Part shown: positions 2,850 to 59,312 of the stretch, one piece after another
Layout of the letters: each line of letters starts with the position of its first letter
Numbering within the stretch: position 1 is the first letter of the stretch
NCBI GenBank assembly: GCA_009694375.1
Contig: SHVB01000001.1
Location: 70,366 to 134,365, forward strand
Length of the DNA: 64,000 bases
Reading direction: 5' to 3'
DNA from: Acidimicrobiia bacterium
GTDB taxonomy: Bacteria; Actinomycetota; Acidimicrobiia; Acidimicrobiales; VFJN01
The notes under the pieces: model-generated
What the model saw: the letters and a program-made list of their open reading frames with translations, nothing else
Databases searched by the model: none
What the model was told of the DNA's origin: nothing
Translations under genes and position numbers: made by a program

Positions 2850-5606
2850 TCACGCCCTGCCGTGGCACATCTTGAACTTCCGACCACTGCCACACGGACA
2901 CGGCGCGTTGCGGGGAGTCTTATCCCAATCAGATTTCACCACCGGGCGCAGGGCGGCAGGCTGATCGCCCGGGGCGGTTTCGGCCATGGCACCTCCCGCG
3001 CCACCCTCCTCGGGAGCGGAGTACTGCAGGTTCTGCACCCGTGGTTCCTCGCCGCCGACCGACAAGGCCGACTCCTCGGTGTCGCTGCTCGTCGGGGAAA
3101 AGTCGGTGCCGATAGCCGGAGCGGCCTGCGCCTGATCCACGGTGACCTGCACGTGCATCACGTAGCGCACGAGGTCCTGGGCCACGCCCTTCATCATCAT
3201 GCCGAACATGTCGTAGCCCTCACGCTGCCACTCGGTGAGTGGATCGCGTTGGCCCATCGCCCGCAGGTTGATGCCCTCCTGGAGGTAGTCCATCTCGAAG
3301 AGGTGTTCGCGCCACTTCGTATCGATGATCTTGAGCATCACCTGGCGCTCCACCTGCCGCATGATCTCGGCGCCGAGTTCCGCCTCCCGGGCTTCGTAGA
3401 AACCGAGGGCATCGTGGGAGAGCAACGTTCGCAGGTCTTCCACGCGTTCGATGGCCGCCAGTTCCTCCACCAACAACAACGAGGGCCAGTAGGTAAGCAA
3501 CTCCGCGTGGAGACCCGCCAGATCCCACTCCTCGTGATAGTCCGACACGCAGTAGGTGCCCACCAACGCTTCGATGGCCTCGGGGAGATGCTCGGTGGTG
3601 ATCTTGTCTCGAAGATCGGCCTCATCGAGGACCTGATCGCGTAGCGCATAGATCACCTTGCGCTGCTGGTTCATCACCTCGTCGTACTTGAGAACGTTTT
3701 TCCGGATCTCGCCGTTCTTTTGTTCCACGGTGGTCTGAGCCCGCTCGATGGCCTTCGATACCATCTTCGCTTCCAAGGGCACGTCGTCGGGTAGGGCCTT
3801 GCCCATCACCCAGTTGATGGCACCGGTGGCGAACAAGCGCATGAGGTCGTCTTCGAGTGAGATGTAGAAGCGACTCTCGCCGGGATCCCCCTGGCGGCCG
3901 GCCCGGCCCCGGAGCTGGTTGTCGATGCGACGAGATTCGTGGCGCTCGGTGCCCAGCACGTAGAGGCCACCAAGAGCCCGCACCCGATCACCCTCAGCCT
4001 TGGTCTCATCCATGTGTTTAACTTCCAACTCCTTGAGCCGGATGTGGCCTTCCTTGCTCAGGGGATCAATCTCTTCGAGGCGAAGCTCACGGGTAGCCAT
4101 AATCTCCGGGTTCCCGCCCAGCACAATGTCCACGCCACGACCAGCCATATTGGTGGCCACCGTGACGGCCTGGAGGCGCCCGGCCTGGGCCACGATCTCG
4201 GCTTCTCGCGTGTGCTGTTTGGCGTTGAGCACCTCATGGGAAATACCGCGCTTTTCCAACATCCGCGAGAGCTTCTCGGACTTCTCCACCGAAATCGTGC
4301 CCACCAGGACGGGTTGGCCCGCCTCGTAACGCTCGGCGATATCGTCGACCACGGCGCCAAACTTGCCGTCTTCGCTCTTGTAGATCAGGTCACCCTCATC
4401 GGCCCGGGCGGCCGCCCGGTTGGTGGGGATGGGCACCACCTGTAGGTCGTAGGTGACGGCGAACTCGGCCGCTTCGGTGGCGGCGGTTCCGGTCATGCCC
4501 GAGAGTTTCTCGTACATGCGGAAGTAGTTCTGGAGGGTGATGGTGGCGAGGGTTTGGTTCTCCTCTTTGATCTTCACACCCTCCTTGGCCTCCACGGCTT
4601 GGTGGAGCCCTTCAGACCAGCGCCGGCCTTCGAGGATGCGGCCAGTGAACTCGTCGACGATCTTCACCTCGCCAGCCTGGATGATGTAGTCCTTGTCGCG
4701 TTTGAACAGTTCCTTGGCCCGCAAGGCGGCTTGGAGTTGGTGCACCAGGTTTTGCGCCACGCCGTCGTAGAGGTTGCCGATGCCCAGCAACTCCTCCACC
4801 TTCTCGATACCCGGTTCGGTGGGCGACACCGTGCGCTTCTGCTCGTCTACCTCGTAGTCCTCCTCGGGTCGGAGACTGCGGACAATGGTGGCGAACTTGT
4901 AATACAACTGGGCGGCGTCGGCCACGCGCCCCGAGATAATCAGAGGCGTGCGGGCTTCGTCGATGAGGATGGAATCAACTTCATCCACGATGGCGTAGCG
5001 AAAGCCCCGCTGCGTTTGGCGAGCACGCGACAGCGCCATGTTGTCCCGGAGGTAGTCGAAGCCAAACTCATTGTTGGTGCCGTAGGTGATGTCGGCGGCG
5101 TACTGCGCTCGTTTGTACTCGGGATCGCTCTCGCCGGGGATGATGAGACCCACTTCGAGGCCGAGCCATCGGTGCAGACGGCCCATCCATTCAGAGTCGC
5201 GGCGGGCGAGATACTCATTCACCGTGATGAGGTGGGTGCCCTGGCCTCCCAACCCATTGAGGTACGCCGGGAGGGTGGACACCAAGGTCTTGCCCTCTCC
5301 CGTCTTCATTTCGGCGATCCACCCGAAGTGCAAGGCCGCTCCCCCGATCAACTGCACGTCGTAATGGCGCTGCCCCAGCACGCGACGGCCCGCCTCGCGT
5401 ACCACCGCGAAAGCCTCGAGCAGGATGTCATCGAGGTCTTCGCCCGCCGCCAGGCGACCACGAAACTCGGGGGTCTTCGCCCGCAAGGCGGCGTCGTCGA
5501 GTGCCTCCATCTCGGCCTCATAGGCCCCAATATCGGGCACAAGGGCCTGGAGAGCCTTGAGCTTCTTACCCTCTCCCGAACGGAGGATCTTGTCGAAGAT
5601 AGTCAT
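2850..5606 (-). CDS. secA: preprotein translocase ATPase SecA
   Basis: 918 aa with MTIFDKILRSGEGKKLK.. at the N-terminus, DEAD-like motor motifs (MKTGEGKTL, DEVDSILIDEARTPLIISG) and a C-terminal zinc-binding tail CPCGSGRKFKMCHG. Confidence 0.97.
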   Translation of the reverse strand: MTIFDKILRSGEGKKLKALQALVPDIGAYEAEMEALDDAALRAKTPEFRGRLAAGEDLDDILLEAFAVVREAGRRVLGQRHYDVQLIGGAALHFGWIAEMKTGEGKTLVSTLPAYLNGLGGQGTHLITVNEYLARRDSEWMGRLHRWLGLEVGLIIPGESDPEYKRAQYAADITYGTNNEFGFDYLRDNMALSRARQTQRGFRYAIVDEVDSILIDEARTPLIISGRVADAAQLYYKFATIVRSLRPEEDYEVDEQKRTVSPTEPGIEKVEELLGIGNLYDGVAQNLVHQLQAALRAKELFKRDKDYIIQAGEVKIVDEFTGRILEGRRWSEGLHQAVEAKEGVKIKEENQTLATITLQNYFRMYEKLSGMTGTAATEAAEFAVTYDLQVVPIPTNRAAARADEGDLIYKSEDGKFGAVVDDIAERYEAGQPVLVGTISVEKSEKLSRMLEKRGISHEVLNAKQHTREAEIVAQAGRLQAVTVATNMAGRGVDIVLGGNPEIMATRELRLEEIDPLSKEGHIRLKELEVKHMDETKAEGDRVRALGGLYVLGTERHESRRIDNQLRGRAGRQGDPGESRFYISLEDDLMRLFATGAINWVMGKALPDDVPLEAKMVSKAIERAQTTVEQKNGEIRKNVLKYDEVMNQQRKVIYALRDQVLDEADLRDKITTEHLPEAIEALVGTYCVSDYHEEWDLAGLHAELLTYWPSLLLVEELAAIERVEDLRTLLSHDALGFYEAREAELGAEIMRQVERQVMLKIIDTKWREHLFEMDYLQEGINLRAMGQRDPLTEWQREGYDMFGMMMKGVAQDLVRYVMHVQVTVDQAQAAPAIGTDFSPTSSDTEESALSVGGEEPRVQNLQYSAPEEGGAGGAMAETAPGDQPAALRPVVKSDWDKTPRNAPCPCGSGRKFKMCHGRA

Positions 5607-16896: not shown

Positions 16897-18894
16897 ATGA
16901 GCCCCGACGGCCCTCCGCCGCCTCCCCCGCCGCCTCCCCCTCCGAATCGACCCGCGGGCGCTGGTCGGGGCCGAGGGCTCTCGGCCTCCGGTATTCCCAA
17001 GTGGGGAATCTGGGCCCTTCTGGCCATCACGCTGATGATCGTCGTGCTGCCAAACTTTCTCACCACCAGCGACTCCAACGCCGTGGCCTACTCGGACTTC
17101 ATGGCCTCGGTGAGGGACGGCGAGGTAGAAAGCGTCGATATCGACAACACCAACGGCGACATCGGCGGCACGAAAACCGACGGCACCAAGTTCAGCACTA
17201 CCGGTCCGCTTGATGGCGGTATCCCCGAAGCCGACCTTGCCACCTTGCGGGAGCAAAGCGTGGAGGTCACGTACAAGACGCCTACCCCCGGGTTGCTGGT
17301 GAGCATCCTCCCCTTCCTCATCCCGGTGGCGATCTTCGTAGGCTTCTTCTGGTTCATGCAGCGCCGGGCCCAGAGCCAGATGGGCGGCGTCATGTCAATC
17401 GGGCGTTCGAAGGCCAAGACCTATTCCGAAGAACGCCCCGGCACCACCTTCGCTGACGTGGCCGGCTACGCGGGGGTGAAAGAGGAAGTCACCGAAGTGA
17501 TCGACTTCCTCAAGAACCCCACCCGCTTCGCCGAAATCGGGGCCCGCATTCCCAAGGGCATCCTCCTCGTAGGCCCGCCGGGCACCGGCAAGACCCTCAT
17601 CGCCCGGGCCGTGGCCGGCGAGGCGGGCGTACCGTTCCTGTCGGTCACCGGATCAGACTTCATGGAGATGTTCGTAGGCGTGGGGGCCAGCCGCGTGCGA
17701 GACCTGTTCCAGAGCGCCCGTAAGATGGGTAAGGCGATCATCTTCGTGGACGAGATCGACTCCATCGGCCGCAAGCGCGGTGCCGGCCTCGGAGGTGGTC
17801 ACGACGAGCGCGAGCAGACGCTCAATCAGATGCTGTCCGAGATGGACGGCTTCGAGGCCACCGAGGGCATCGTGATCATCGCCGCCACCAACCGGCCCGA
17901 CATCCTCGATCCCGCCCTTCTGCGCCCGGGACGCTTCGACCGCCAGGTCGTGGTGCCCCTTCCCGAGGTCAGCGAGCGCGTTCACATCCTCGAGGTGCAC
18001 TCCAAGTCCAAGCGGATGGCCACCGACGTCGACCTCAACGTGGTCGCGCGCGGTACCCCGGGGATGTCCGGAGCGGACCTCTCCAACCTGGTGAACGAAG
18101 CGGCCCTGTTTGCGGTACGCGACGGCAAAGATCAGATTTCCCAGCACCACTTCGAACTGGCCCGAGACCGAGTGCTGATGGGTGCCCGTCGCGAGTCCAT
18201 GGCTTTGGCCCACCGCGAGAAGGAAGCCATCGCCTACCACGAAGGAGGCCACGCGGTGGCCGCCGCCGTGCTCACCCATGCCGATCCCGTCCACAAGGTG
18301 ACGATCCTTCCCATGGGCATGGCTCTCGGGGTCACCCAGCAACTGCCCATGGATGATCGCCACATCTACCGGCAGGATTACATTGAGGACAGCCTGGTGG
18401 TGCGTATGGGGGGTCGTATCGCCGAAGACCTCGTGTTTGGAGTGGTTTCCACCGGTGCGAACAACGACCTCGTGGGATCCACCGAACTCGCCCGCCGCAT
18501 GGTGCGCGAGTGGGGTATGTCCGAACGGGTCGGCCCGATGGCCTGGGGGTCGCAGGGCGCCGTCTTCCTAGGCGACGATCTAATGCAGACCCGGGACTAC
18601 TCCGACGAAACCGCTCGCGTGATTGACGAGGAGGTCGAACGAATCCTGCGCCAGCAAGAACAACGGTGCCGCGAGACGCTCACCGAACACCGCAACGCCC
18701 TCGACCTAGTGGCCCGGGCCCTACTGGAACACGAGACGATCGACGGTCCGGAGGTCTACCGCCTGGTGGAACTCGGTCGGCAGGGCCGCACCGCGGTCGA
18801 GGAGTTTGGGCAATGGCAGGCCAGCGACGGCCGCGGCGAGTGCTCCGGTGCCTTTGGCGCCGCCCACGTGGCCACCGAAGCCCCACGCGAGTGA
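16897..18894 (+). CDS. ftsH: ATP-dependent zinc metalloprotease FtsH
   Basis: 665 aa with two TM helices, AAA+ Walker A GPPGTGKT, Walker [12 protein letters not shown], and HEGGH zinc site (AYHEGGHAV). Confidence 0.97.
16912..16944 (+). repeat. run of 11 consecutive proline codons at codons 6-16 of ftsH
   Basis: cct ccg ccg cct ccc ccg ccg cct ccc cct ccg, read directly. No alternative in-frame ATG/GTG lies between it and TM1. Confidence 0.9.
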
Positions 18895-47444: not shown

Positions 47445-49202
47445 GTGCTTACCAAAGTCCTCATCGCCAATCGGGGCGAGATTGCTGTCCGAGTCATCCG
47501 CGCTTGCCAGGAAATGGGTATTGCCACGGTGGCGGTCTATTCCCAGTTAGATCGGGGGGCGCTCCACGTTCGCCTCGCCGATGAGGCTTACGCGCTGGGA
47601 GGCCAGACCGCCGCCGAGAGTTACCTCAATACGGCACGAATCCTCGAGGTAATCGAACAGTCCGGCGCCGATGGCGTGCATCCGGGTTACGGCTTCTTCT
47701 CCGAAAACACCGACTTCGCCCGGGCCATCACCGAACGCGGTGTGACCTTCATCGGTCCGCCGCCCGAGGCCATCGAAGTGATGGGCGACAAGGTCTCGAG
47801 CCGCATCGCTGCGCAGGCCGCCGGGGTGCAGGGCGTGCCCGGCACCACCGAGTTCCTCTCCTCCAGCGATGAGGTGGTGGCCTTCGGTACCGAGTTTGGG
47901 TGGCCGGTGGCCATCAAGGCGGCCTACGGCGGCGGCGGGCGCGGCATGCGCGTGGTGTTGAGCGCGTCCGAGGCCCACGATGCACTCGAGTCGGCCCAAT
48001 CGGAGGCCCTGAAAGGCTTTGGGCGCGACGAGTGCTACGTGGAGCGCTACCTCACCTGGCCGCGTCACGTCGAGATGCAAATCATCGGCGACACGCACGG
48101 CAACGTGGTGTGGATCGGCGAACGCGACTGCTCGGCCCAACGTCGCCACCAAAAACTGATCGAGGAAAGCCCGGCGCCGTCCTTCCCCCCCGAGACTCGT
48201 CAGGCCATGGGCGAAGCGGCGGTCAAGGTGGCCAAAGCCTGCGGCTATTACAACGCGGGCACTGTTGAGTTCCTCTTCCAAGACGGCGAGTTCTGGTTCC
48301 TCGAGATGAACACCCGCCTGCAGGTGGAACACCCCGTTACCGAGTTGGTGTCGGGAATCGACCTCGTGCGCGAGCAGATCCGGGTGGCGTCGGGTGAGCC
48401 CCTGTCCTTCACGCAGGACGACATCGACCTGCGGGGTTGGGCCATCGAGGTGCGGGTCAATGCCGAGAACCCCGCGGAAGGACGGTTCCTTCCCTCTCCC
48501 GGCACCATCACCGAACTCGTACCGCCGCAGGGCTTTGGGGTGCGCTGGGACGGTGGGTACGAAAGCGGCGACGAAGTGAGCCAGTACTACGACAACCTGG
48601 TGGGGAAACTAGTGGTGTGGGGCGACACGCGCGACACCGCCATCGACCGCATGATTCGCGCCCTCACGGAAATGCGCATCGAGGGAATCGCCACCACCAT
48701 TCCTGCCGACCTCGCCATCTTGCGCCACCCCGACTTCCGGGCCGCCGCGCACTCCACCAAGTGGGTGGAGGATCGCCTCGATCTCACCGGCATCACCTCC
48801 GGACCGACAGCGCCAGCGGTTGATCCCGACGAGGCCCCCAAGGTGCAACGAGATGTAGACGTGGAGATCAACGGCAAACGCTTCTCGGTGAAGATGTGGG
48901 TACCCGACGTCCCTATGGTGGCGGCCACGGCTTCGGCCGGCCCTCGCCACCGCCGAGCGGTCGCCAGTGGCAAAACGGCGGCCGCTGGCAGCGGAAACGT
49001 CTCCGCGCCGATGCAGGGCACCATTGTGAAGGTGCTCGTCGAGGTGGGCCAGACCGTGACCGTTGGTCAGTCTGTCTGCGTGCTGGAAGCCATGAAGATG
49101 GAAAACACCATCGCCGCTGACAAGGACGGAACCGTGGCGGAAATCAAGGTCGCCGCGGGCCAGTCGGTGGGGACCGGCGACATCGTGGTGGTTATCGACT
49201 GA
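47445..49202 (+). CDS. accA: acetyl/propionyl-CoA carboxylase alpha subunit (biotin carboxylase + BCCP)
   Basis: 585 aa with (M)LTKVLIANRGEIAVRVIRA, ATP-grasp motifs and a C-terminal biotinyl-lysine motif VLEAMKMEN. Confidence 0.95.
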   Translation: MLTKVLIANRGEIAVRVIRACQEMGIATVAVYSQLDRGALHVRLADEAYALGGQTAAESYLNTARILEVIEQSGADGVHPGYGFFSENTDFARAITERGVTFIGPPPEAIEVMGDKVSSRIAAQAAGVQGVPGTTEFLSSSDEVVAFGTEFGWPVAIKAAYGGGGRGMRVVLSASEAHDALESAQSEALKGFGRDECYVERYLTWPRHVEMQIIGDTHGNVVWIGERDCSAQRRHQKLIEESPAPSFPPETRQAMGEAAVKVAKACGYYNAGTVEFLFQDGEFWFLEMNTRLQVEHPVTELVSGIDLVREQIRVASGEPLSFTQDDIDLRGWAIEVRVNAENPAEGRFLPSPGTITELVPPQGFGVRWDGGYESGDEVSQYYDNLVGKLVVWGDTRDTAIDRMIRALTEMRIEGIATTIPADLAILRHPDFRAAAHSTKWVEDRLDLTGITSGPTAPAVDPDEAPKVQRDVDVEINGKRFSVKMWVPDVPMVAATASAGPRHRRAVASGKTAAAGSGNVSAPMQGTIVKVLVEVGQTVTVGQSVCVLEAMKMENTIAADKDGTVAEIKVAAGQSVGTGDIVVVID

Positions 49203-49725
49203 CGCCGGCGGTTCGCGCCACGCTCAGCGCCCGCGGTAGATCCACGAAGGCGGCGTACACCAGCACCAGCGCCAGCGCCGAGAGAGCCACGATGACCACG
49301 GCAACACCCGGGGCATCGATGAGGGCGTCGAGAGGCGGTGCCGAAGACCACCCCGCCATGGCCACCGCTACACCCGCCAGGAACACATCCAGCACCACGT
49401 GGATCGGATGCGGCGGTGTTTCATCGCGTCCGAAGCACCCGCAGGACCCAATCATCGTGCCGCTCCGCCGGGCGAGCACCACGAACGCCCCGAACGCCCC
49501 GTAACTCAGCCCCACCAACGACCACACCAGCGCCCCGCCCACCGTGATGGCCGCCAACCCGAGCACCAGTTCCGCTCCTGATCCCAGCCGCACCCACCCT
49601 GAGCGGGCCGGCAGCCCCAGGGCCCGCAAGGCCCCCACGGTCATGGTGGGATCAAGGAGCTTCTGGGCCCCAGCGAGGGCCAGCAATGCCGCGACGACCA
49701 GGGCGGGGGCGGTGAGCGCCGGCAT
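49192..49725 (-). CDS. MauE/DoxX-family redox-associated membrane protein
   Basis: 177 aa with 4 TM helices, GAQKLLDP near the N-terminus, and the SCGCFG motif (49429-49446) characteristic of MauE. Confidence 0.8.
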   Translation of the reverse strand: MPALTAPALVVAALLALAGAQKLLDPTMTVGALRALGLPARSGWVRLGSGAELVLGLAAITVGGALVWSLVGLSYGAFGAFVVLARRSGTMIGSCGCFGRDETPPHPIHVVLDVFLAGVAVAMAGWSSAPPLDALIDAPGVAVVIVALSALALVLVYAAFVDLPRALSVARTAGVSR

Positions 49726-49730
49726 GGGGC

Positions 49731-51089
49731 CTATTCCGACGCCTCGGCCAATGCTTCAGCCAGCGAGGGGTGCACCAGCAGACTGTCCACCAGATCCACG
49801 GCTCGCAGACCATTGGTGACTGCTACCGCCACTACCGCGATCAACTCGCCCGCGTGTCGGCCCACCACCGAGCCACCCAACACGATGCCCGTGGCGGGGT
49901 CGCTCACCAGTTTCACAAAACCCCGCGAATGACTTTCGATCAGGGCCTTGGGTGATGCCGAAAACGGCACCTTGGTGACCCGCACCTTCCGACCTTGCGC
50001 AAAGGCATCCGCCTCCGCCAAGCCAACATCGGCGATCTCAGGCACGGTGAAAATAGCCGTGGCCGCCTTGTCGTAGTCCAGTGTTCGGTGCAGGCCAGAG
50101 GGATAGCCCATCACCTTCTCGGCGATCCGGCGGCCCTGCATCGCGGCCACCGATGACAGCGGGAGTTTCCCCGACAGGTCACCGGCGGCATAGACGTGGG
50201 GCACGTTGGTGGCGCAGTTAGCGTCGATGGGCACGTACCCGCCCACTACGGTTACGCCCGCCGCCGCCAAGCCCAGTCCCTCGCTATTAGGTAGAGACCC
50301 GATGGCCATCAGGGCGTGGGATCCGCTTACCGCTCGGCCATCGTCACAACGCACCGTGAGCGTGTCGGTGTGCCGATCGATCCCCATCGCCCGTGCCCCC
50401 TTGAGCACGTTGACCCCCCGGGAGAGCAGTTCGTCTTCCAAGGCGGCCGCCACCTCGGGGTCTTTCCCCGGCAGCACCTGCTGTCGCGACGCAATCAGGG
50501 TCACCTCGCTCCCCAACGCCGAGAACATGTGGACGAACTCCACCCCTGTCACCCCCGACCCGATCACCACCAGGTGGGTGGGCCACTCCCGGGGCGGATA
50601 GGCGTGGCGCGTGGAGAGCACCCGATGGCCATCCACCTCAGCCCAGTCGGGCCGACGCGGACGGCTCCCGGTGGCGAGAAGAATGGCATCGGCTTCGAGT
50701 TCGATCCGCCCGTCGTCGGTAGTGGCCACCACCTGGTGCGGGCCCACCAAACAACCGTTTCCCCGCAGTATCCGCACGCCCTGGCTCTCGAGAAGCTGCC
50801 GGGTGTCGTGCTCGATTTTGGCGGAGATGCCCTCGATCCGTTGCCGGAGCGCCACGGCATCCACGCCAACCGGGCCCGGCGTGAGTGCCATTTCTGATGA
50901 CCGCCGCACCGCGGCCAGCGCCCCACCGGTGGCGATCATGGCCTTGGACGGAATGCAGTCCCAGAGGTGCGCCGCGCCCCCAATGATATCGCGCTCGATC
51001 ACGGTCACTTCCGCGCCGAAGCCGGCGGCACGGCTGGCCGCAGTGTTGCCGGCGGGCCCACCGCCGATGATCACGAACCTCACAGTCAT
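49731..51089 (-). CDS. lpdA: LpdA-type flavoprotein (NAD(P)H-quinone dehydrogenase-like pyridine nucleotide-disulfide oxidoreductase)
   Basis: MTVRFVIIGGGPAGN.. (FAD), a second GxGxxG (VVIGSGVTGVE), and a dimerisation domain. The redox centre reads GGAAHLWDCIPSK, with only one Cys where Lpd has CxxxxC. I chose the ATG at 51089. Confidence 0.85.
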   Translation of the reverse strand: MTVRFVIIGGGPAGNTAASRAAGFGAEVTVIERDIIGGAAHLWDCIPSKAMIATGGALAAVRRSSEMALTPGPVGVDAVALRQRIEGISAKIEHDTRQLLESQGVRILRGNGCLVGPHQVVATTDDGRIELEADAILLATGSRPRRPDWAEVDGHRVLSTRHAYPPREWPTHLVVIGSGVTGVEFVHMFSALGSEVTLIASRQQVLPGKDPEVAAALEDELLSRGVNVLKGARAMGIDRHTDTLTVRCDDGRAVSGSHALMAIGSLPNSEGLGLAAAGVTVVGGYVPIDANCATNVPHVYAAGDLSGKLPLSSVAAMQGRRIAEKVMGYPSGLHRTLDYDKAATAIFTVPEIADVGLAEADAFAQGRKVRVTKVPFSASPKALIESHSRGFVKLVSDPATGIVLGGSVVGRHAGELIAVVAVAVTNGLRAVDLVDSLLVHPSLAEALAEASE

Positions 51090-51170
51090 AGCCTGGACGC
51101 TACCGAATCGGCGCCTCTCCCCCGCCGCTAGCGCACCGAGCAGCCCCGATGGCTGCACTATCGTTGGGGC
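51090..51170. promoter_or_regulatory. divergent intergenic region between the lpdA-like gene and the TAT/Cys-rich gene
   Basis: 81 bp between opposed start codons. TATCGT (51159-51164, TANNNT-type -10) ends 6 nt before GTG 51171, which is compatible with a leaderless or very short leader. This rests on geometry only. Confidence 0.2.
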
Positions 51171-52502
51171 GTGGTCGCTTCCAATCTGCTAGCCCGAGCA
51201 ACCAATGCGGTGGCCCATCGCATTGACCGACGAAGTTTTCTGGCCCGCTCTGCCATGGCGGGAACGGCGCTGGTCACCGCCCCCGCCAACTTTCTCCTGC
51301 GCCCCCAGAGCGCCTACGCCGCCACCTGCAACTGCCAGGGCCAGGGATGCGCTTGCGGCTCCCTGTGCTGCGACGGCTACACCGAGTTCTGCTGCGCCAT
51401 CTACGGCACCAACACCTGCCCGAGCGGCTCGCTCACCGGCGGCTGGTGGAAGGCCGACGGGTCATCGTTTTGTGGGGGCGCCGCCCGCTACTACATGGAC
51501 TGCCACAAGCCCTGCGGCTTTTGCAGCTGCGGCGGCTCGGGGGTGTGCAGCGGCGCCTGCAACGGAAGCCCGTGCGGTTGTGCAAAGGGCCGCTGTGACC
51601 ACCGCAAGGCTGGTTGCACCTCGTTCCGATACGGCAACTGCAACAACGCCACCGCCTGCATCGGTCCGATCCTGTGCCGAGTGGTTACCTGTACCGAGCC
51701 CTGGAAGATCGAACCCACGTGCTCCAGCGCCGCCGTGCGAACCGACAACAACACGGCGAACCACAACCGGCCATGCCTCCAAACAGCACCGCCCATCTAT
51801 CCAGTGGCGGGCAACTGGGACGGAATCGGCAAATCCGGCATCGGCTTCTACGACAACCTCACCCACCTCTGGACAATCCGCCAGTCGGCCAATCTCGGTC
51901 CCGTGGCCCCCTTCGCCTACGGCCTCCAACCCGGTGATCGGCCCGTCGTAGGCGACTGGAACGGTGACGGGACAACCGGCGTAGGAATCTTCCGCAACGC
52001 CGTGTGGCACCTGTCGAATCAGATCAACCCCGCCTCTACCTTCCTGGTCAGTGCCCCCTACGGGCAGCAGTCCGGCGACATGCCGGTGGCGGGAGATTGG
52101 AACGGTGACGGCACCGACTCGCCCGGCATCTTCCGCCGCGGTGGCTATTGGCACCTCAGCGACAATCTGGCCTCCCCCTCGACGGTGCGCGTGGTGCGCT
52201 ACGGCCTCGCGGTCGGCGACCTACCCGTGGTGGGCGACTGGAACAATGACGGCATCGACGGCATCGGTATTTTTCGCAGCGGCATGTGGCATCTCAACAA
52301 CACCCTTGCACCCTCCTCCACTGCCCGGCTTATCCCCTTCGGACAGCGCGGCGACATACCGGTGGTGGGTGATTGGCACGCTCTCGGCCAGGTGAGCCTG
52401 GGCGTGTACCGACCGTCAGAGGGAACATGGTATTTACGCCGATCACTGACCGACGCGTCGGTGATCACCGTCAAGTTTGGACAACGATGGCTACTCGGCT
52501 GA
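51171..52502 (+). CDS. TAT-exported protein: 26-Cys MauA (methylamine dehydrogenase light chain)-like domain fused to five FG-GAP/VCBS-type repeats
   Basis: 443 aa. The twin-arginine signal is DRRSFLARSAMAGTALVTAPANFLLRPQSAYA|AT. Residues 51-202 contain 26 Cys, including CPSGSLTGGWWKADGSSFCGGAARYYMDCHKPCG. These are followed by 5 repeats of P-V-x-G-D-W-N-G-D-G..G-I-F-R..W-H-L. Confidence 0.75.
   Translation: MVASNLLARATNAVAHRIDRRSFLARSAMAGTALVTAPANFLLRPQSAYAATCNCQGQGCACGSLCCDGYTEFCCAIYGTNTCPSGSLTGGWWKADGSSFCGGAARYYMDCHKPCGFCSCGGSGVCSGACNGSPCGCAKGRCDHRKAGCTSFRYGNCNNATACIGPILCRVVTCTEPWKIEPTCSSAAVRTDNNTANHNRPCLQTAPPIYPVAGNWDGIGKSGIGFYDNLTHLWTIRQSANLGPVAPFAYGLQPGDRPVVGDWNGDGTTGVGIFRNAVWHLSNQINPASTFLVSAPYGQQSGDMPVAGDWNGDGTDSPGIFRRGGYWHLSDNLASPSTVRVVRYGLAVGDLPVVGDWNNDGIDGIGIFRSGMWHLNNTLAPSSTARLIPFGQRGDIPVVGDWHALGQVSLGVYRPSEGTWYLRRSLTDASVITVKFGQRWLLG
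51798..52499 (+). repeat. five tandem ~46-aa FG-GAP/VCBS-like coding repeats
   Basis: The repeats begin YPVAGNWDGIGKSGIGFY.. / RPVVGDWNGDGTTGVGIFR.. / MPVAGDWNGDGTDSPGIFR.. / LPVVGDWNNDGIDGIGIFR.. / IPVVGDWHALGQVSLGVYR.., with a period of about 138-141 nt. Confidence 0.85.
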
Positions 52503-52512
52503 TGGCGACTTG

Positions 52513-53325
52513 ATGGCTGCTCTCGTCGTGGCCTTGGCGATGGTGGTGGCTCTCCTCGGCGTGCTCGTGATTGGCCTTCTCCGCTCCCATGCCGAGATCC
52601 TGCGGGCCTTGCATGATCTCGGGGTGAACCTCGAGGATGGCGTCGCCGCACCTGCCGCGCCGCTCCGGAGCCCCGCCGTATCAAATCGAGCGCCGATGCG
52701 CACGAGCGACGGGGTACCTCGACCCCGTGATGAGAACGCGCCCATGGGCGACGCCGTGGACCTGACCGGTGAACTTCCGCTCGGGGGGGCCGCCCGGGTG
52801 GCGGTCACTGGAGTGGGCCACGCCACCCTGTTGGCGTTCCTTTCGTCGGGTTGCGGCACCTGCGGAGTGTTCTGGGAAGCCCTCGCCACTCCCGGAGGCC
52901 CCGAACTACCCGGCCCAGACACGCGGGTAGTGATCGTGACCAACGGTCCTGAGGTCGAATCAGCCGCCGCGGTGGCCGACCTCGCCCCGACCGCTATCGT
53001 CACGATCATGACCAGCGCCGCCTGGGACGACTATCGCGTCCCGGTGTCGCCCTATTTCTTGCTGGTCGACGGACCTTCAGGGACGGTGGTGGGCGAAGGA
53101 TCCGGAACCTCCTGGGACCAGGTACGCGACCTCCTCGGTCGGGCTATCGCCGATGCAGGACTGGCGCGGAGCGACGACCACAGCCGCCTCGCCCGCATGG
53201 GCGGCCAGGACCGCGCCGATTGGGTAGATAGCGAGATGCAGGCGGCTGGCATCGAGCCGGGCCACCCCAGCCTCTACCCAGAACCCCACCCCTCTCATCT
53301 CGGAACCGATGACACCACCCCATGA
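52513..53325 (+). CDS. MauD-like membrane-anchored thioredoxin-fold protein (CGTC)
   Basis: N-terminal TM MAALVVALAMVVALLGVLVIGLL, then RSHAEILRALHDLG. The Trx core is LLAFLSSGCGTCGVFW (Cys codons at 52852 and 52861) with VPVSPYFLLVD, followed by about 70 aa of acidic/His tail. I chose the ATG at 52513; the track ORF starts at 52477. Confidence 0.75.
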   Translation: MAALVVALAMVVALLGVLVIGLLRSHAEILRALHDLGVNLEDGVAAPAAPLRSPAVSNRAPMRTSDGVPRPRDENAPMGDAVDLTGELPLGGAARVAVTGVGHATLLAFLSSGCGTCGVFWEALATPGGPELPGPDTRVVIVTNGPEVESAAAVADLAPTAIVTIMTSAAWDDYRVPVSPYFLLVDGPSGTVVGEGSGTSWDQVRDLLGRAIADAGLARSDDHSRLARMGGQDRADWVDSEMQAAGIEPGHPSLYPEPHPSHLGTDDTTP

Positions 53326-53816
53326 GCCGGCTCGCCGACTCCGGGATCTCCATCGATCTACCCCACCGATGGGACGGACAGATTCGCGCCGCGGGCCGCG
53401 ACTTCACCTCCCGCTCCACCACCACCCTGGCGCCGCTCGATGCCACCCCCACCGTGGGATCGGTCCTCCATGCCAGCAGTTTCGCCCTGCCCGCCGAGCG
53501 AGGCGACTACGGCTCTGGAGCCGTTGAGTCGATGGGGGGATCAGACATTCTCATCTGCCTCCTCGAACATGAACCCGAGGCCGCCGCCACCGCCCTGTTC
53601 CGCCGTGAGGGTTTGCCGAGTGTCGGCGTGGCCGATTTCTCGCCGGAGAGCATGCAACGGGCCATGCCCGGCATGTCTGGGTTTCAAAGGTTCTTCCAGG
53701 TGGCGGGGCGGCCGTTCTGCCTCTACGTCGTGGTGGGCCACCATGTCACCCGGGGTCCCCTCGTGCGCTCGGCCCACGCCGTCGTGCAAACGATATCCAT
53801 CGTCCCAAAATCATGA
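53322..53816 (+). CDS. hypothetical protein (no signal peptide, no recognisable family)
   Basis: 164 aa with ATGA overlaps to both neighbours (53322-53325 and 53813-53816). G/C third-position bias is like the flanking genes. Confidence 0.6.
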   Translation: MSRLADSGISIDLPHRWDGQIRAAGRDFTSRSTTTLAPLDATPTVGSVLHASSFALPAERGDYGSGAVESMGGSDILICLLEHEPEAAATALFRREGLPSVGVADFSPESMQRAMPGMSGFQRFFQVAGRPFCLYVVVGHHVTRGPLVRSAHAVVQTISIVPKS

Positions 53817-56095
53817 ACTCTTCTCCCCGTTGGCGCGGCGTTGCCTTACTCGTCTTGCTGGCGACCCTTCCCGTTGTCCGCTCGACGGCCAGGGCATCGG
53901 CGGCCGAGCCGAGGATCAACGTGGTCCCCACCGGCACCACCACCGTGATTCCCGATGCCGGCTGGAGTTGGTTCTCCGACGAGCGGGCGCAGTTCTCCAG
54001 CGACGGCACGACGCTCTATACCGGCGCAGTGGCCAGCCGTTATGCCCAACGACTCCCGCCGGGAACCTCGATGGTCGGCGAGTTCACCCTCGCCACCGGG
54101 GCCCGCCGGCTCGTGGGCTTGGGGGTGGCCGAGAGCGATGACCACGACAACCCCTCGATTTATTCGGCGCCCAACGGAGAAGTGACCACCGCTTGGTCTC
54201 GTCACAACCGGGACGGCCTGATCCACCAGCAACGCCGCCGCACCGATGGGTCGTGGCTGCTGCTTCCTTCCATTCCAGCCGGGGGAAACACCACCTACAG
54301 CCGGTTGGTGTCGAGTACCGGAGCGGCCGGTGAAGCGGTGCTCTACAACTTTTATCGGGGCGATCGATTCGATACGTCGGCCCTGGTATCCACCGATGTC
54401 GGACGCAGTTGGGCAGACATCGGACCCATACTGCGCGACCCAACCGACCTCATCAATGGCCGCCCGTACGTGCAGTATGCGGCCGATGGACATGGCCGTG
54501 TCGACCTCATCGCCACGGCAACCCACCCCCGGGACGAGCAGACATCCATCTACCACGGCTACATCAAAACCGGGCAGGTCTACCGGTCCGACGGAACGTT
54601 ACTCGGACCCCTCGGTGCCACCCTTCCGGTGACCGCACTTACCCGAGTGTGGTCTCCTCCCGGCAGTGAACGGGCCTGGGTGGCAGCGATTCAAGACGAC
54701 CCGATCACCGGACAACCAACGATTGTCTTCTCGGTGCGCCACTCCGTGACTGATCATCGCTACTGGTACGGCTCCTGGGATGGCACGACCTGGCAGACCG
54801 CCGAAGTGGCTTACGCCGGCACGGCGCTCACCGCTGAGGAGGAGGACTACACGGGGCTAGCGGCGCTGGATCCAGCCGACCCTACGCACCTGGTCATCTC
54901 GACCAACGCCGATCCGGTTACCGGCGCTCCCCTGGTTTCGGTAGCGGATCAGCAACGCCACTGGGAGCTGTGGGAGGGCCGTCAAGCCGGAGGGATCTGG
55001 ACATGGACGGCGCTCACTCGCGATTCCACGACCGATAACCTACGCCCGGTGCTGGCCGCCTTGAACGGTGCGCACGCGCTGTTATGGATGCGGGGGTCCT
55101 ACCCCGGGTACACGACCTACGACACCGACATCGTGGGGGTGATTTCCACTCCTGAGGGGACGACCGTGGGTGCGGGAGCGGCCAGGGTGGCCACCAGCGT
55201 GCCGGTGCTCCCCACTCCCGCACCGAGCACCGAGCGAGGCACGCCGGTGGTGGGTCAATTCGACGGCCACCCGGCTGACGACCTCCTGATGATCCATCCC
55301 GGTGCCGTTTCGGAGTCCCTTTTTCTCGGCGATGAGCAGCACCACCCGAGCGCGATCGCAGCCCCATCGGTCACGGGCACCTACACGCCCATCGCCGGCG
55401 ACTATGACGGCAACGACACCACCGACATCTACTTCTACGCCCCTGGTCCCGCCACCGACTACCTCTGGCTCGCTTCGGGAGTAGGCCGGTTTACCTCGGT
55501 GCCGGTTCGCCAGGTGTTCGGCGTCTACACGCCCATCCCCGGCGACTTCGACTGCGATGGCACCACCGACATCTACTTCTACGCCCCGGGTGCGGCCACC
55601 GACAGTCTGTGGATCGCAAAGAGCTCGGCGTTCACACCCCTCGCAACTCGCCAAGTGTTCGGCACCTACACGCCCGTCCGGGGTGATCAAGACGGGGACG
55701 GATGCGACGATATTTTCTTCTACGGTGCCGGGTCCACACCCGAGTCGCGCTGGCGTGGCGGGCCCGGTGCCATTTTCCGCGTCACCGAGACCCGACAGGT
55801 ACTCGGTTCCTACCTCCCGGTCAGTGGCGACTACAACGGCGACGGCCGCACCGACATCCTCTTCTACGCCCCTGGTGTGAGCAGTGACTACCTCTGGCTC
55901 GCGTCCGAGACAGGAACTTTCGTCGACGCTCCCATTCGCCAGATCTACGGTCAATTTTCGCCGGTCGCCGGGGACTTCGATGGCAACGGAGGCGACGACG
56001 TGCACTTCTACAACCCTGGGTCCCCGGCTGATCCTCTGTGGCTGTCCGGCAATCTTCCCCTCGCCAATTTCACGACCGCGATCAACAACCTCTAG
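53813..56095 (+). CDS. Sec-exported protein: BNR/sialidase-like beta-propeller (BNR_4-like) plus six FG-GAP-type repeats
   Basis: 760 aa. The signal is MNSSPRWRGVALLVLLATLPVVRSTARASA|AEP. It has an Asp-box STDVGRSW, ESDDHDNPSIY and LLWMRGSYPGYTTYDTDI (BNR_4-like, recalled from memory). The C-terminal 284 aa are repeats with GDYDGNDTTDIYFYAPG-type DxDxDG loops. Confidence 0.7.
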   Translation: MNSSPRWRGVALLVLLATLPVVRSTARASAAEPRINVVPTGTTTVIPDAGWSWFSDERAQFSSDGTTLYTGAVASRYAQRLPPGTSMVGEFTLATGARRLVGLGVAESDDHDNPSIYSAPNGEVTTAWSRHNRDGLIHQQRRRTDGSWLLLPSIPAGGNTTYSRLVSSTGAAGEAVLYNFYRGDRFDTSALVSTDVGRSWADIGPILRDPTDLINGRPYVQYAADGHGRVDLIATATHPRDEQTSIYHGYIKTGQVYRSDGTLLGPLGATLPVTALTRVWSPPGSERAWVAAIQDDPITGQPTIVFSVRHSVTDHRYWYGSWDGTTWQTAEVAYAGTALTAEEEDYTGLAALDPADPTHLVISTNADPVTGAPLVSVADQQRHWELWEGRQAGGIWTWTALTRDSTTDNLRPVLAALNGAHALLWMRGSYPGYTTYDTDIVGVISTPEGTTVGAGAARVATSVPVLPTPAPSTERGTPVVGQFDGHPADDLLMIHPGAVSESLFLGDEQHHPSAIAAPSVTGTYTPIAGDYDGNDTTDIYFYAPGPATDYLWLASGVGRFTSVPVRQVFGVYTPIPGDFDCDGTTDIYFYAPGAATDSLWIAKSSAFTPLATRQVFGTYTPVRGDQDGDGCDDIFFYGAGSTPESRWRGGPGAIFRVTETRQVLGSYLPVSGDYNGDGRTDILFYAPGVSSDYLWLASETGTFVDAPIRQIYGQFSPVAGDFDGNGGDDVHFYNPGSPADPLWLSGNLPLANFTTAINNL
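55241..56092 (+). repeat. six tandem 47-48-aa FG-GAP-like coding repeats with DNA-level identity
   Basis: accaccgacatctacttctacgcccc occurs at 55418 and again at 55562 (144 nt apart). A close variant, caccgacatcctcttctacgcccctggt, occurs near 55849. Protein repeats carry GDYDGNDTTDIYFYAPG / GDFDCDGTTDIYFYAPG / GDQDGDGCDDIFFYGAG / GDYNGDGRTDILFYAPG / GDFDGNGGDDVHFYNPG. Confidence 0.9.
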
Positions 56096-57112: not shown

Positions 57113-57161
57113 TAGAGGGCGGTTTCACGTCCCCGAGGGCCGGTCCGTAGCATGAGGGGTG

Positions 57162-59312
<2,151 letters not shown>

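Follow-up and report, generated by a model that had tools for sequence, protein, structure and literature searches.

MauA, the small methylamine dehydrogenase (MADH) subunit, needs two partner proteins, MauE and MauD; MauE homologues replace DsbB in an Escherichia coli dsbB deletion by way of a CXC motif followed by F-G, and MauD is proposed to act as a DsbA-like intermediary (bioRxiv 10.64898/2026.03.05.709764). The pathway so described, in which a MauE protein with CXC-F-G stands beside a thioredoxin-fold CXXC protein and the relay runs from substrate to thioredoxin to MauE to quinone, is a functional analogue of DsbB/DsbA and of VKOR/DsbA. A 2020 study of Streptomyces found candidate clusters for RiPPs (peptides made by the ribosome and modified after translation) that pair mauE/mauD homologues with precursors of at least eight cysteines (decRiPPter, PMC7794033). 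Here we describe a locus from a bacterium of the class Acidimicrobiia, contained in a stretch of 64,000 nucleotides (nt) of contig SHVB01000001.1 (the window, to which all positions refer), in which a gene at 51171..52502 on the forward strand encodes a protein with a twin-arginine (Tat) leader and 26 cysteines in ∼150 residues, in the company of genes for a MauE-family and a MauD-like protein.

Comparison with the mau system reveals likenesses and differences. As in MauA (PF02975), the twin-arginine leader is long and extended in its n-region, what follows it is a small, predicted beta-rich and disulfide-dense exported domain (MauA has 12 cysteines in ∼130 residues), and MauE- and MauD-type genes are adjacent. 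Common to both proteins is the motif G-x-N/T-x-C-P-P-G-T, with a conserved tryptophan ∼10 residues further on and then Y-x-D-C. Unlike MauA, the Cys-rich protein has no match to PF02975, twice as many cysteines, no conserved counterpart of the second tryptophan of tryptophan tryptophylquinone (TTQ), and a domain that is fused to cell-wall-anchor or lectin modules and that, at every locus examined so far, comes from Acidimicrobiia or from unclassified actinobacterial metagenome-assembled genomes (MAGs); unlike the mau system, its loci were not found to hold genes for the heavy subunit, MauG or amicyanin. Another small, crosslink-dense protein is QhpC, the gamma subunit of quinohemoprotein amine dehydrogenase, which carries the tryptophan-derived cofactor cysteine tryptophylquinone (CTQ) and Cys-Asp/Glu thioethers, and whose system needs a radical S-adenosylmethionine (radical-SAM) enzyme, a protease and a flavoprotein. 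Compared by description, the present family differs: the last three are not conserved across the 82 loci clustered here, and cysteine parity and covariation point to Cys-Cys bonds. The MauE proteins of the preprint come from Calditrichota and Thermodesulfobacteriota, and a generalist role is argued for them (bioRxiv 10.64898/2026.03.05.709764), whereas the pair described here, known from sequence, keeps synteny with a single, extremely Cys-rich putative Tat substrate, and two more genes are conserved alongside. With the decRiPPter clusters the locus shares an actinobacterial MauE (there with or without MauD) beside a Cys-rich product and no remaining mau cluster; unlike those short predicted peptide precursors of secondary-metabolite-like setting, from which we set it apart by description, the product here is a Tat-type multidomain protein of 212-742 amino acids (aa) in a conserved chromosomal context (PMC7794033).

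The MADH small subunit already exemplifies the logic: a domain dense in disulfides, headed by a Tat-type leader and accompanied by MauE/MauD. An earlier note on this DNA, made from the letters alone, had called so cysteine-dense a domain on the Tat route unusual; in the light of this precedent the word is too strong. New with respect to the literature that we found are the domain family, its predicted density of 13 disulfides, the fusion to cell-wall modules, the extra cluster genes, and the distribution, in the loci examined, over Acidimicrobiia and unclassified actinobacterial MAGs.

On our reading, to which we assign a probability of roughly 0.6, the gene encodes a Tat-targeted protein of the cell envelope, whose domain of ∼150 residues and up to 13 disulfides would be oxidised outside the cell by a dedicated relay of MauE/MauD type. 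Genomic context is the strongest evidence in this analysis. Among 83 related loci, the thioredoxin-like gene is syntenic with the Cys-rich gene in 77 and a gene for a 164-aa protein in 73; MauE adjoins in 49/83 by tblastn and in 66/∼82 when ORFs (open reading frames) are clustered over 82 loci. A fifth gene, encoding a membrane protein and not present in the window, adjoins in 54 of the related loci. The usual order is MauE, Cys-rich protein, thioredoxin, membrane protein, 164-aa protein, with the last two sometimes swapped, and the cluster is kept down to 42% domain identity. Besides these genes, the clustering returned no gene family common to more than 14 loci; genes for MauG, MauB, radical-SAM enzymes and flavoproteins were none of them conserved.

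In the window, the MauE-family polytopic membrane protein (49192..49725, reverse strand) is recognised by Pfam (PF07291, 1.1e-11) and carries an S-C-G-C-F-G motif, the active-site region reading ...IGSCGCFGRDE.... Directly downstream of the Cys-rich gene, at 52513..53325 (+), lies the gene for a membrane-anchored, MauD-like protein of thioredoxin fold, identified from the family alignment and from matches of its relatives to TIGR02661. The protein, of 270-282 aa, begins with a transmembrane helix at its N-terminus and carries the active site TLLAFLSSGC-G-T-C and, as cis-Pro motif, VPxxPYF. For this window copy, the mechanical ORF begins at TTG 52477 and overlaps the upstream gene; family alignment and sequence favour ATG 52513, 11 nt past the stop at 52500-52502, as the start. 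TIGR02661 (MauD) is the best NCBIfam match for 18 of 23 members (best 4.7e-7), with scores of 15-22 bits over profile positions 50-177, far under the equivalog cut-off, and matches of the family profile in the PDB are weak and confined to thioredoxin-fold proteins. By sequence the protein is MauD-like, not MauD. Oxidation after export by the adjacent thioredoxin-like protein, one of two possibilities put forward in the earlier note, gains support from this best match and from the synteny with MauE across the Acidimicrobiia.

The third conserved neighbour, a 164-aa protein (53322..53816, +), has a start that overlaps the upstream stop (ATGA) and no signal peptide or transmembrane segment; its 163 homologues are all named ‘hypothetical’ and have no Pfam domain. 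An AlphaFold2 (AF2) model, with a predicted local distance difference test score (pLDDT) of 90.7, gave weak Foldseek similarity (E 0.05-0.3) to sandwiches of the PsbP, MTC28, Tsi3, MucB and EagT6 type, and also to Mog1-like folds. At a guess, it may serve the Tat precursor as a chaperone in the cytoplasm. A further gene, at 53813..56095 (+), again begins with an ATGA overlap, so that each of these three genes downstream of the Cys-rich gene is joined to the one before it by an 11-nt gap or by such an overlap; it encodes a secreted 760-aa protein with Pfam matches to BNR_4 (a sialidase-like propeller) and FG-GAP. It adjoins the cluster in just 4/83 loci and is an operon member in this lineage, outside the conserved cluster. 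The FG-GAP part of this 760-aa protein and the C-terminus of the Cys-rich protein are 26-27% identical.

Might MauE and the thioredoxin instead form a general housekeeping disulfide system, with the Cys-rich protein as its most demanding client or as a structural part of the machinery? MauE has been argued to be a generalist, many of its carriers lacking MauA (bioRxiv 10.64898/2026.03.05.709764), and the cluster sits among the housekeeping genes accA, birA, lpd, secA and ftsH. Such a system would not lead one to expect tight synteny with one substrate gene in nearly all 83 loci, held down to the identity given above, and we judge this account improbable.

The gene itself is well defined. The ORF 51171..52502 (+) yields a protein of 443 aa; a stop lies upstream in frame at 51129, and GTG 51171 is the first start. 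In four close relatives (domain identity 81-97%) amino-acid conservation begins at the codon equivalent to GTG 51171, with none upstream, and the RR motif is therefore translated: the start on which the twin-arginine leader of the earlier note depended holds. That the ORF is real is further evident from more than 100 homologues in a word-indexed search and from 618 clusters at 50% identity in a profile search.

Residues 1-50 (51171..51320, +) make up the Tat signal peptide, as recognised from the TIGR01409 model, the onset of conservation and the RR motif in relatives. An n-region extension of ∼17 residues is followed by the motif D19-R20-R21-S-F-L-A, by a G/A/T-rich, weakly hydrophobic h-region (SAMAGTALVTAPANFLL) and by a c-region with a basic residue (R44) and a likely cleavage site at A48-Y-A50. 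TIGR01409 matches residues 18-45 with 21.6 bits against a cut-off of 16.7. Across the 164 family members with complete N-termini, RR plus two hydrophobic residues (mostly RRGFL or RRSFL) is found in 157, and a basic c-region residue ahead of an A-Y-A-type site (pattern [RK]P..AY) in 137. The twin-arginine leader noticed earlier is thereby borne out, and these features suggest Tat as the export route.

The Cys-rich domain (residues 51-212; 51321..51806, +) was delimited from alignments, conservation and the AF2 model. Its cysteines stand at residues 53, 55, 60, 62, 66, 67, 74, 75, 83, 101, 111, 115, 118, 120, 126, 130, 135, 137, 142, 149, 157, 163, 169, 174, 184 and 202; the 26 positions listed in the earlier note, for a span (51321..51776) that equals residues 51-202, match the translation exactly, as does the Trp-Trp at residues 92-93. 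With 26 cysteines in 150 residues the domain reaches 17%, compared with 0.67% in seven neighbouring genes (binomial tail ∼1e-28), while neither the 52-residue leader nor the 241-residue C-terminal part contains any. The domain abounds in C, G, A, T, S and N, and hydrophobic residues account for only 22% of it as against 37% of the C-terminal part.

To examine the family we aligned 64 members and checked 106 further representatives separately, giving 170 sequences together. In 62 of the 64 the number of domain cysteines is even (16, 18, 20, 22, 24, 26 or 32), and one of the two members with an odd count is without its N-terminus. Variable cysteines covary: columns 133 and 148 at r = 0.94, and the groups 55/62/67 and 115/126/130 at r = 0.90-0.96. 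The even total of the window protein, to which attention had been drawn, is thus a property of the family. Even counts together with gain and loss in pairs favour disulfides over metal clusters, and most likely the 26 cysteines are paired in up to 13 disulfides.

Proteins take the Tat route most commonly because a cofactor is inserted, and the earlier note had offered metal or cofactor loading before export as one explanation of the leader. In its full form this account would have the cysteines bind a metal or Fe-S-type cluster inserted in the cytoplasm, the thioredoxin and MauE being unrelated or protective. The CxC, CC and CxxC spacings and the scant hydrophobic core would suit it. However, in none of the 64 members did Pfam return a match to Fer4, HiPIP, ferredoxin, metallothionein or any other metal family (E <= 10), and the pattern CxxCxxCxxxCP was not found in the domain. 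The metallothionein-like look comes from a CxC-rich N-terminal stretch (C55, C60, C62, C67) and from a variable, Cys-containing insertion at residues 115-135; the former stretch and the insertion (over residues 115-130) are missing from many members, and the N-terminal cysteines are dispensable in those with 16. Add to this that cysteine numbers shift in steps of two with pairwise covariation, and that the genes conserved nearby encode disulfide-forming proteins and neither metallochaperones nor enzymes of cofactor maturation, and a metal-binding role appears extremely unlikely.

Returning to oxidative folding outside the cell, the scheme that we favour would run as follows. The precursor would leave through Tat with its cysteines reduced and the domain poorly structured. 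Outside the membrane, the co-encoded, anchored MauD-like thioredoxin (CGTC) would oxidise the cysteines; MauE (CGC-FG) would in turn re-oxidise the thioredoxin and pass electrons to the quinone pool, a role like that of DsbB. Labour would thus be divided as it is between DsbA and DsbB, and between MauD and MauE for the MADH small subunit. The 164-aa cytoplasmic protein would be a further accessory, possibly chaperoning the precursor. The finished domain would be held together by up to 13 disulfides rather than by a hydrophobic core, and the mature protein would be kept at the cell surface by its C-terminal module (here a propeller of FG-GAP type; in its relatives, a lectin or an anchor to the cell wall). 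That oxidation would take place outside the membrane is taken from homology to MauD and MauE.

Several observations weigh against this scheme. The charges that flank the CGC loop of MauE and the transmembrane helix of the thioredoxin are ambiguous as to orientation. Tat normally carries folded proteins, and a domain that needs disulfides and travels by Tat is paralleled just by MauA. The thioredoxin-like proteins of relatives match MauD only at the 15-22 bits mentioned above, and the window copy by itself has no match in Pfam or NCBIfam that reaches threshold. Finally, MauE in the window is divergently oriented and parted from the Cys-rich gene by a gene for an Lpd-like flavoprotein.

The last of these, a pyridine-nucleotide-disulfide oxidoreductase at 49731-51158 (-), probably starts near 51089 (MTVRFVIIGGG) and not at GTG 51158; in place of the CxxxxC redox pair of class I enzymes it has a single cysteine (…HLWDCIPSK…). 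As a member of the system it was rejected: it adjoins the cluster in 9/83 loci.

The question of orientation leads to a different order of events, in which oxidative folding would precede export: with the loop of MauE and the anchored thioredoxin turned towards the cytoplasm, disulfides would arise on the membrane's inner side, the 164-aa protein would help, and Tat would export a domain already locked by its disulfides. That the Tat leader is so strictly kept (in 96% of members, even where a C-terminal domain is lacking) would find an explanation here, as would the conservation of an accessory protein with no signal peptide, and with RR before the CGC loop of MauE and R/H after the transmembrane helix of the thioredoxin an outward orientation is not clearly favoured. 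It would conflict with the replacement of DsbB by MauE homologues in E. coli, which requires a CXC facing the periplasm, and with the treatment of MauD in the literature as a periplasmic protein. We consider folding before export very unlikely, and retain oxidation after export as the preferred order.

How widespread is the domain? The word-indexed search returned 106 homologues, each of which bears the name ‘hypothetical’ or ‘twin-arginine signal domain protein’. Among 1.84 billion representatives, searched exhaustively with a profile, 618 clusters (50% identity) matched at E <= 1e-3 and 303 at E <= 1e-30, and a scan of one genome per species located the domain at no fewer than 574 loci. All 80 loci examined for taxonomy belong to Acidimicrobiia or to unclassified actinobacterial MAGs, the closest relative being that of Candidatus Microthrix parvicella RN1 (97% identity). 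The domain is nearly always N-terminal, in proteins of 212-742 aa; a few matches start near residue 120-190. In the representatives P0372, P0401 and P0488 it begins near residue 180.

The invariant residues of the core are C74, C75, N81, C83, P84, G91, W92, W93, C101, R106, D110, C111, F152, (R153), Y154, G155, C157, C169, R170, C174, C184, T195 and C202. About ten cysteines together with N81, P84, G91, W92, W93, R106, D110, F152, Y154, G155 and R170 are invariant in the 64 aligned members and again in the 106 further representatives. The non-cysteine positions (N81, P84, G-W92-W93, R106, D110, F-R-Y-G at 152-155, R170) are proposed to form a putative functional site. An AF2 model built from the 64-sequence alignment (pLDDT 78; predicted template modelling score, pTM, 0.77) is mostly beta, and its confidence peaks around the invariant motifs.

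Assignment to a known family was attempted and rejected. There is no Pfam family match within the domain in any of the 64 members, and no Pfam or NCBIfam match in the Cys-rich domain of the window protein; sequences in the PDB were matched neither by the single sequence nor by the family profile, and Foldseek of the AF2 model against the PDB gave a best E of 6, on a class of small disulfide-rich folds for which the program is weak. Literature searches returned no paper describing the family. The match to a characterised Cys-rich family that would have told against the earlier note is not among the Pfam, NCBIfam and PDB results, and from its sequence the protein is a real, conserved and uncharacterised protein of Microthrix-like Acidimicrobiia, predicted to be secreted.

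The earlier note had also spoken of a MauA-like stretch around the Trp-Trp pair, and relationship to MauA deserves separate consideration. As a control, a MauA sequence was verified against the PDB and Pfam (180 bits, PF02975), 349 homologues were collected and 36 aligned. PF02975 matches neither the window protein nor any of the 64 relatives (E <= 10). At full length, an hhalign comparison of the Cys-rich family with the MauA alignment reaches a probability of 95% (E = 3e-8, 87 columns). Split up, the comparison has E = 1.6e-9 for the leader alone and, for the mature parts alone, E = 0.0085 over 11 columns, which are the G-x-N-x-C-P-P-G-T motif. As a control of leader specificity we used 12 unrelated Tat leaders: they score 12-21 against the family leader, where the MauA leader scores 28, and the MauA leader profile scores 35 against the leader of TorA. 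This last value means that the leader similarity is not specific. Full-length hhalign as support for homology was consequently rejected: it rests on the Tat leader, and the mature part leaves a weak local motif.

For the mature domain, a local score of 21.0 compares with a column-shuffled null of 13.2 +/- 2.4 (maximum 19.0, n = 40). The global hhalign score is not above its nulls; HMMER profile-to-sequence searches in both directions gave nothing above reversed decoys; and the light chains of MADH and of aromatic amine dehydrogenase (AADH) were found neither by PDB profile search nor by Foldseek. At low stringency the alignment is colinear over the first half, pairing D68-G with D32-G of MauA, C83-P-x-G with C46-P-P-G, W93 with the TTQ residue Trp57, and D110-C111 with D76-C77. 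The TTQ-forming tryptophans are Trp57 and Trp108 of the Paracoccus denitrificans protein; in this low-confidence alignment the column of Trp108 is Gln or Asn in the family. Shared ancestry with MauA is possible. Homology is not established, because the signal consists mostly of the leader and the short CPPGT motif, and by sequence the family does not show the defining features of MauA. What survives of the MauA-like stretch is that motif and the colinear first half; PF02975 (0/64) and HMMER (no signal above decoys) do not bear the likeness out.

These data also bear on the suggestion of a very remote kinship between the domain and the TTQ dehydrogenase light chain, with a tryptophan-derived quinone or crosslink formed at W92-W93 without MauG, and hence a redox enzyme of the cell surface; even so, a disulfide maturation system would still be required. 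The pair is invariant in 170/170 sequences, along with D110, R106, F-R-Y-G and R170, and the MauE and MauD-like partners recall the arrangement mauE-mauD-mauA. The full-length hhalign result, the local score of the mature domain (above all 40 shuffles) and the alignment of W93 with Trp57 point in the same direction. Against this, the hhalign signal is mostly that of the Tat leader, for which unrelated Tat leaders can score equally high; the PF02975, HMMER, PDB profile and Foldseek searches are negative; the Trp108 position is Gln or Asn; and the third tryptophan of the domain, W178, is replaced in 21/64 and 12/106 members. In the 64-kb window, the ORFs of 150 aa or more include none with two CxxCH motifs (di-haem), and genes for MauG, MauB, radical-SAM enzymes or flavoproteins are not conserved over the 82 loci. 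We regard a TTQ relative as unlikely; a tryptophan-derived cofactor at the invariant pair is possible but unsupported.

Beyond the Cys-rich domain, the C-terminal module of the window protein (51807..52502, +) has five FG-GAP-like repeats and no cysteine, as judged from a weak Pfam match to FG-GAP_3 and from a repeat motif, P-V-x-G-D/N-W-x-x-D-G, at residues 211, 258, 305, 352 and 397. This part varies across the family. In the 106 representatives it comprises LGFP repeats (23), CW_binding_2 (5), FG-GAP (4), DUF4214 (3), Ricin-B lectin (2), and SLH, Tectonin, fn3 and B_lectin (1 each); the others have no recognisable module after the domain. By their sequence families most of the recognised modules are cell-wall anchors or glycan-binding and lectin modules, which would make the Cys-rich domain the constant head of a protein retained at the surface, with retention probably effected by the C-terminal module. 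In one database protein among the 106 a MauE Pfam domain stands ahead of the Cys-rich domain: either a true fusion of MauE with its substrate, or a gene call extended too far across a short intergenic gap.

The fifth cluster gene encodes a polytopic membrane protein of ∼225 aa with no Pfam or NCBIfam match. Examples are at L009:7473-8153 (+), L029:4349-5017 (+) and L036:9988-10656 (+, chromosome of Salinilacustrithrix flava). In 37 loci a TGA stands in frame at the very codon that specifies cysteine in 14 others, in the context R-S-T-W-S-P-[U/C]-G, and most TGA forms of the protein contain no cysteine at all. Two hairpins lie downstream of the TGA. The first, GAUGCU-NNNN-AGCAUC, follows 11 nt after U; it is invariant in 37/37 TGA forms, synonymous sites included, and not present in the Cys forms. 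In the second hairpin, two pairs have undergone compensatory change. Folding energy averages -19.0 kcal/mol in TGA forms versus -14.7 kcal/mol in Cys forms, and the same class is reported to possess selenocysteine machinery. The fifth gene probably represents a new selenoprotein family tied to the MauE/MauD-like folding cluster.

A more far-reaching idea would unite these strands: the G-W-W/R/D/F-R-Y-G/R site would be the active centre of a new group of redox enzymes anchored to the cell wall, an ancient offshoot of the TTQ light chain that makes a tryptophan-derived quinone or crosslink and does without MauG and heavy subunit, and that is matured by a five-gene module which, in most Acidimicrobiia, would include a membrane disulfide isomerase with a single selenocysteine. 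We put it forward as a long shot, no likelier than a general housekeeping role for the relay.

As to wider surroundings, the window holds housekeeping and cell-envelope genes at 21036-43466, 2850-5606 and 16897-18894; nearby genes include those for SecA, FtsH, family-2 glycosyltransferases, an LCP (LytR-CpsA-Psr) ligase and dTDP-sugar-like functions, and a methylmalonyl-CoA mutase gene lies downstream at 57159-59312. Rfam returned no RNA family in the whole window, and a promoter and terminator scan was uninformative.

If the favoured reading is true, no natural Tat substrate so far described with folding genes of its own would be denser in disulfides, and the protein would be a useful test case for how Tat handles proteins unable to fold in a reducing cytoplasm. 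It would also give the recently proposed MauE disulfide pathway a native, dedicated client beyond methylotrophy, and one from the Acidimicrobiia, an actinobacterial class that has received little study and includes the wastewater bulking organism Microthrix. In relatives the cluster points to a probable new family of selenoproteins. A family of ∼618 clusters without annotation or structure, and with a strongly conserved site made of residues other than cysteine, suggests a new surface activity to be assigned.

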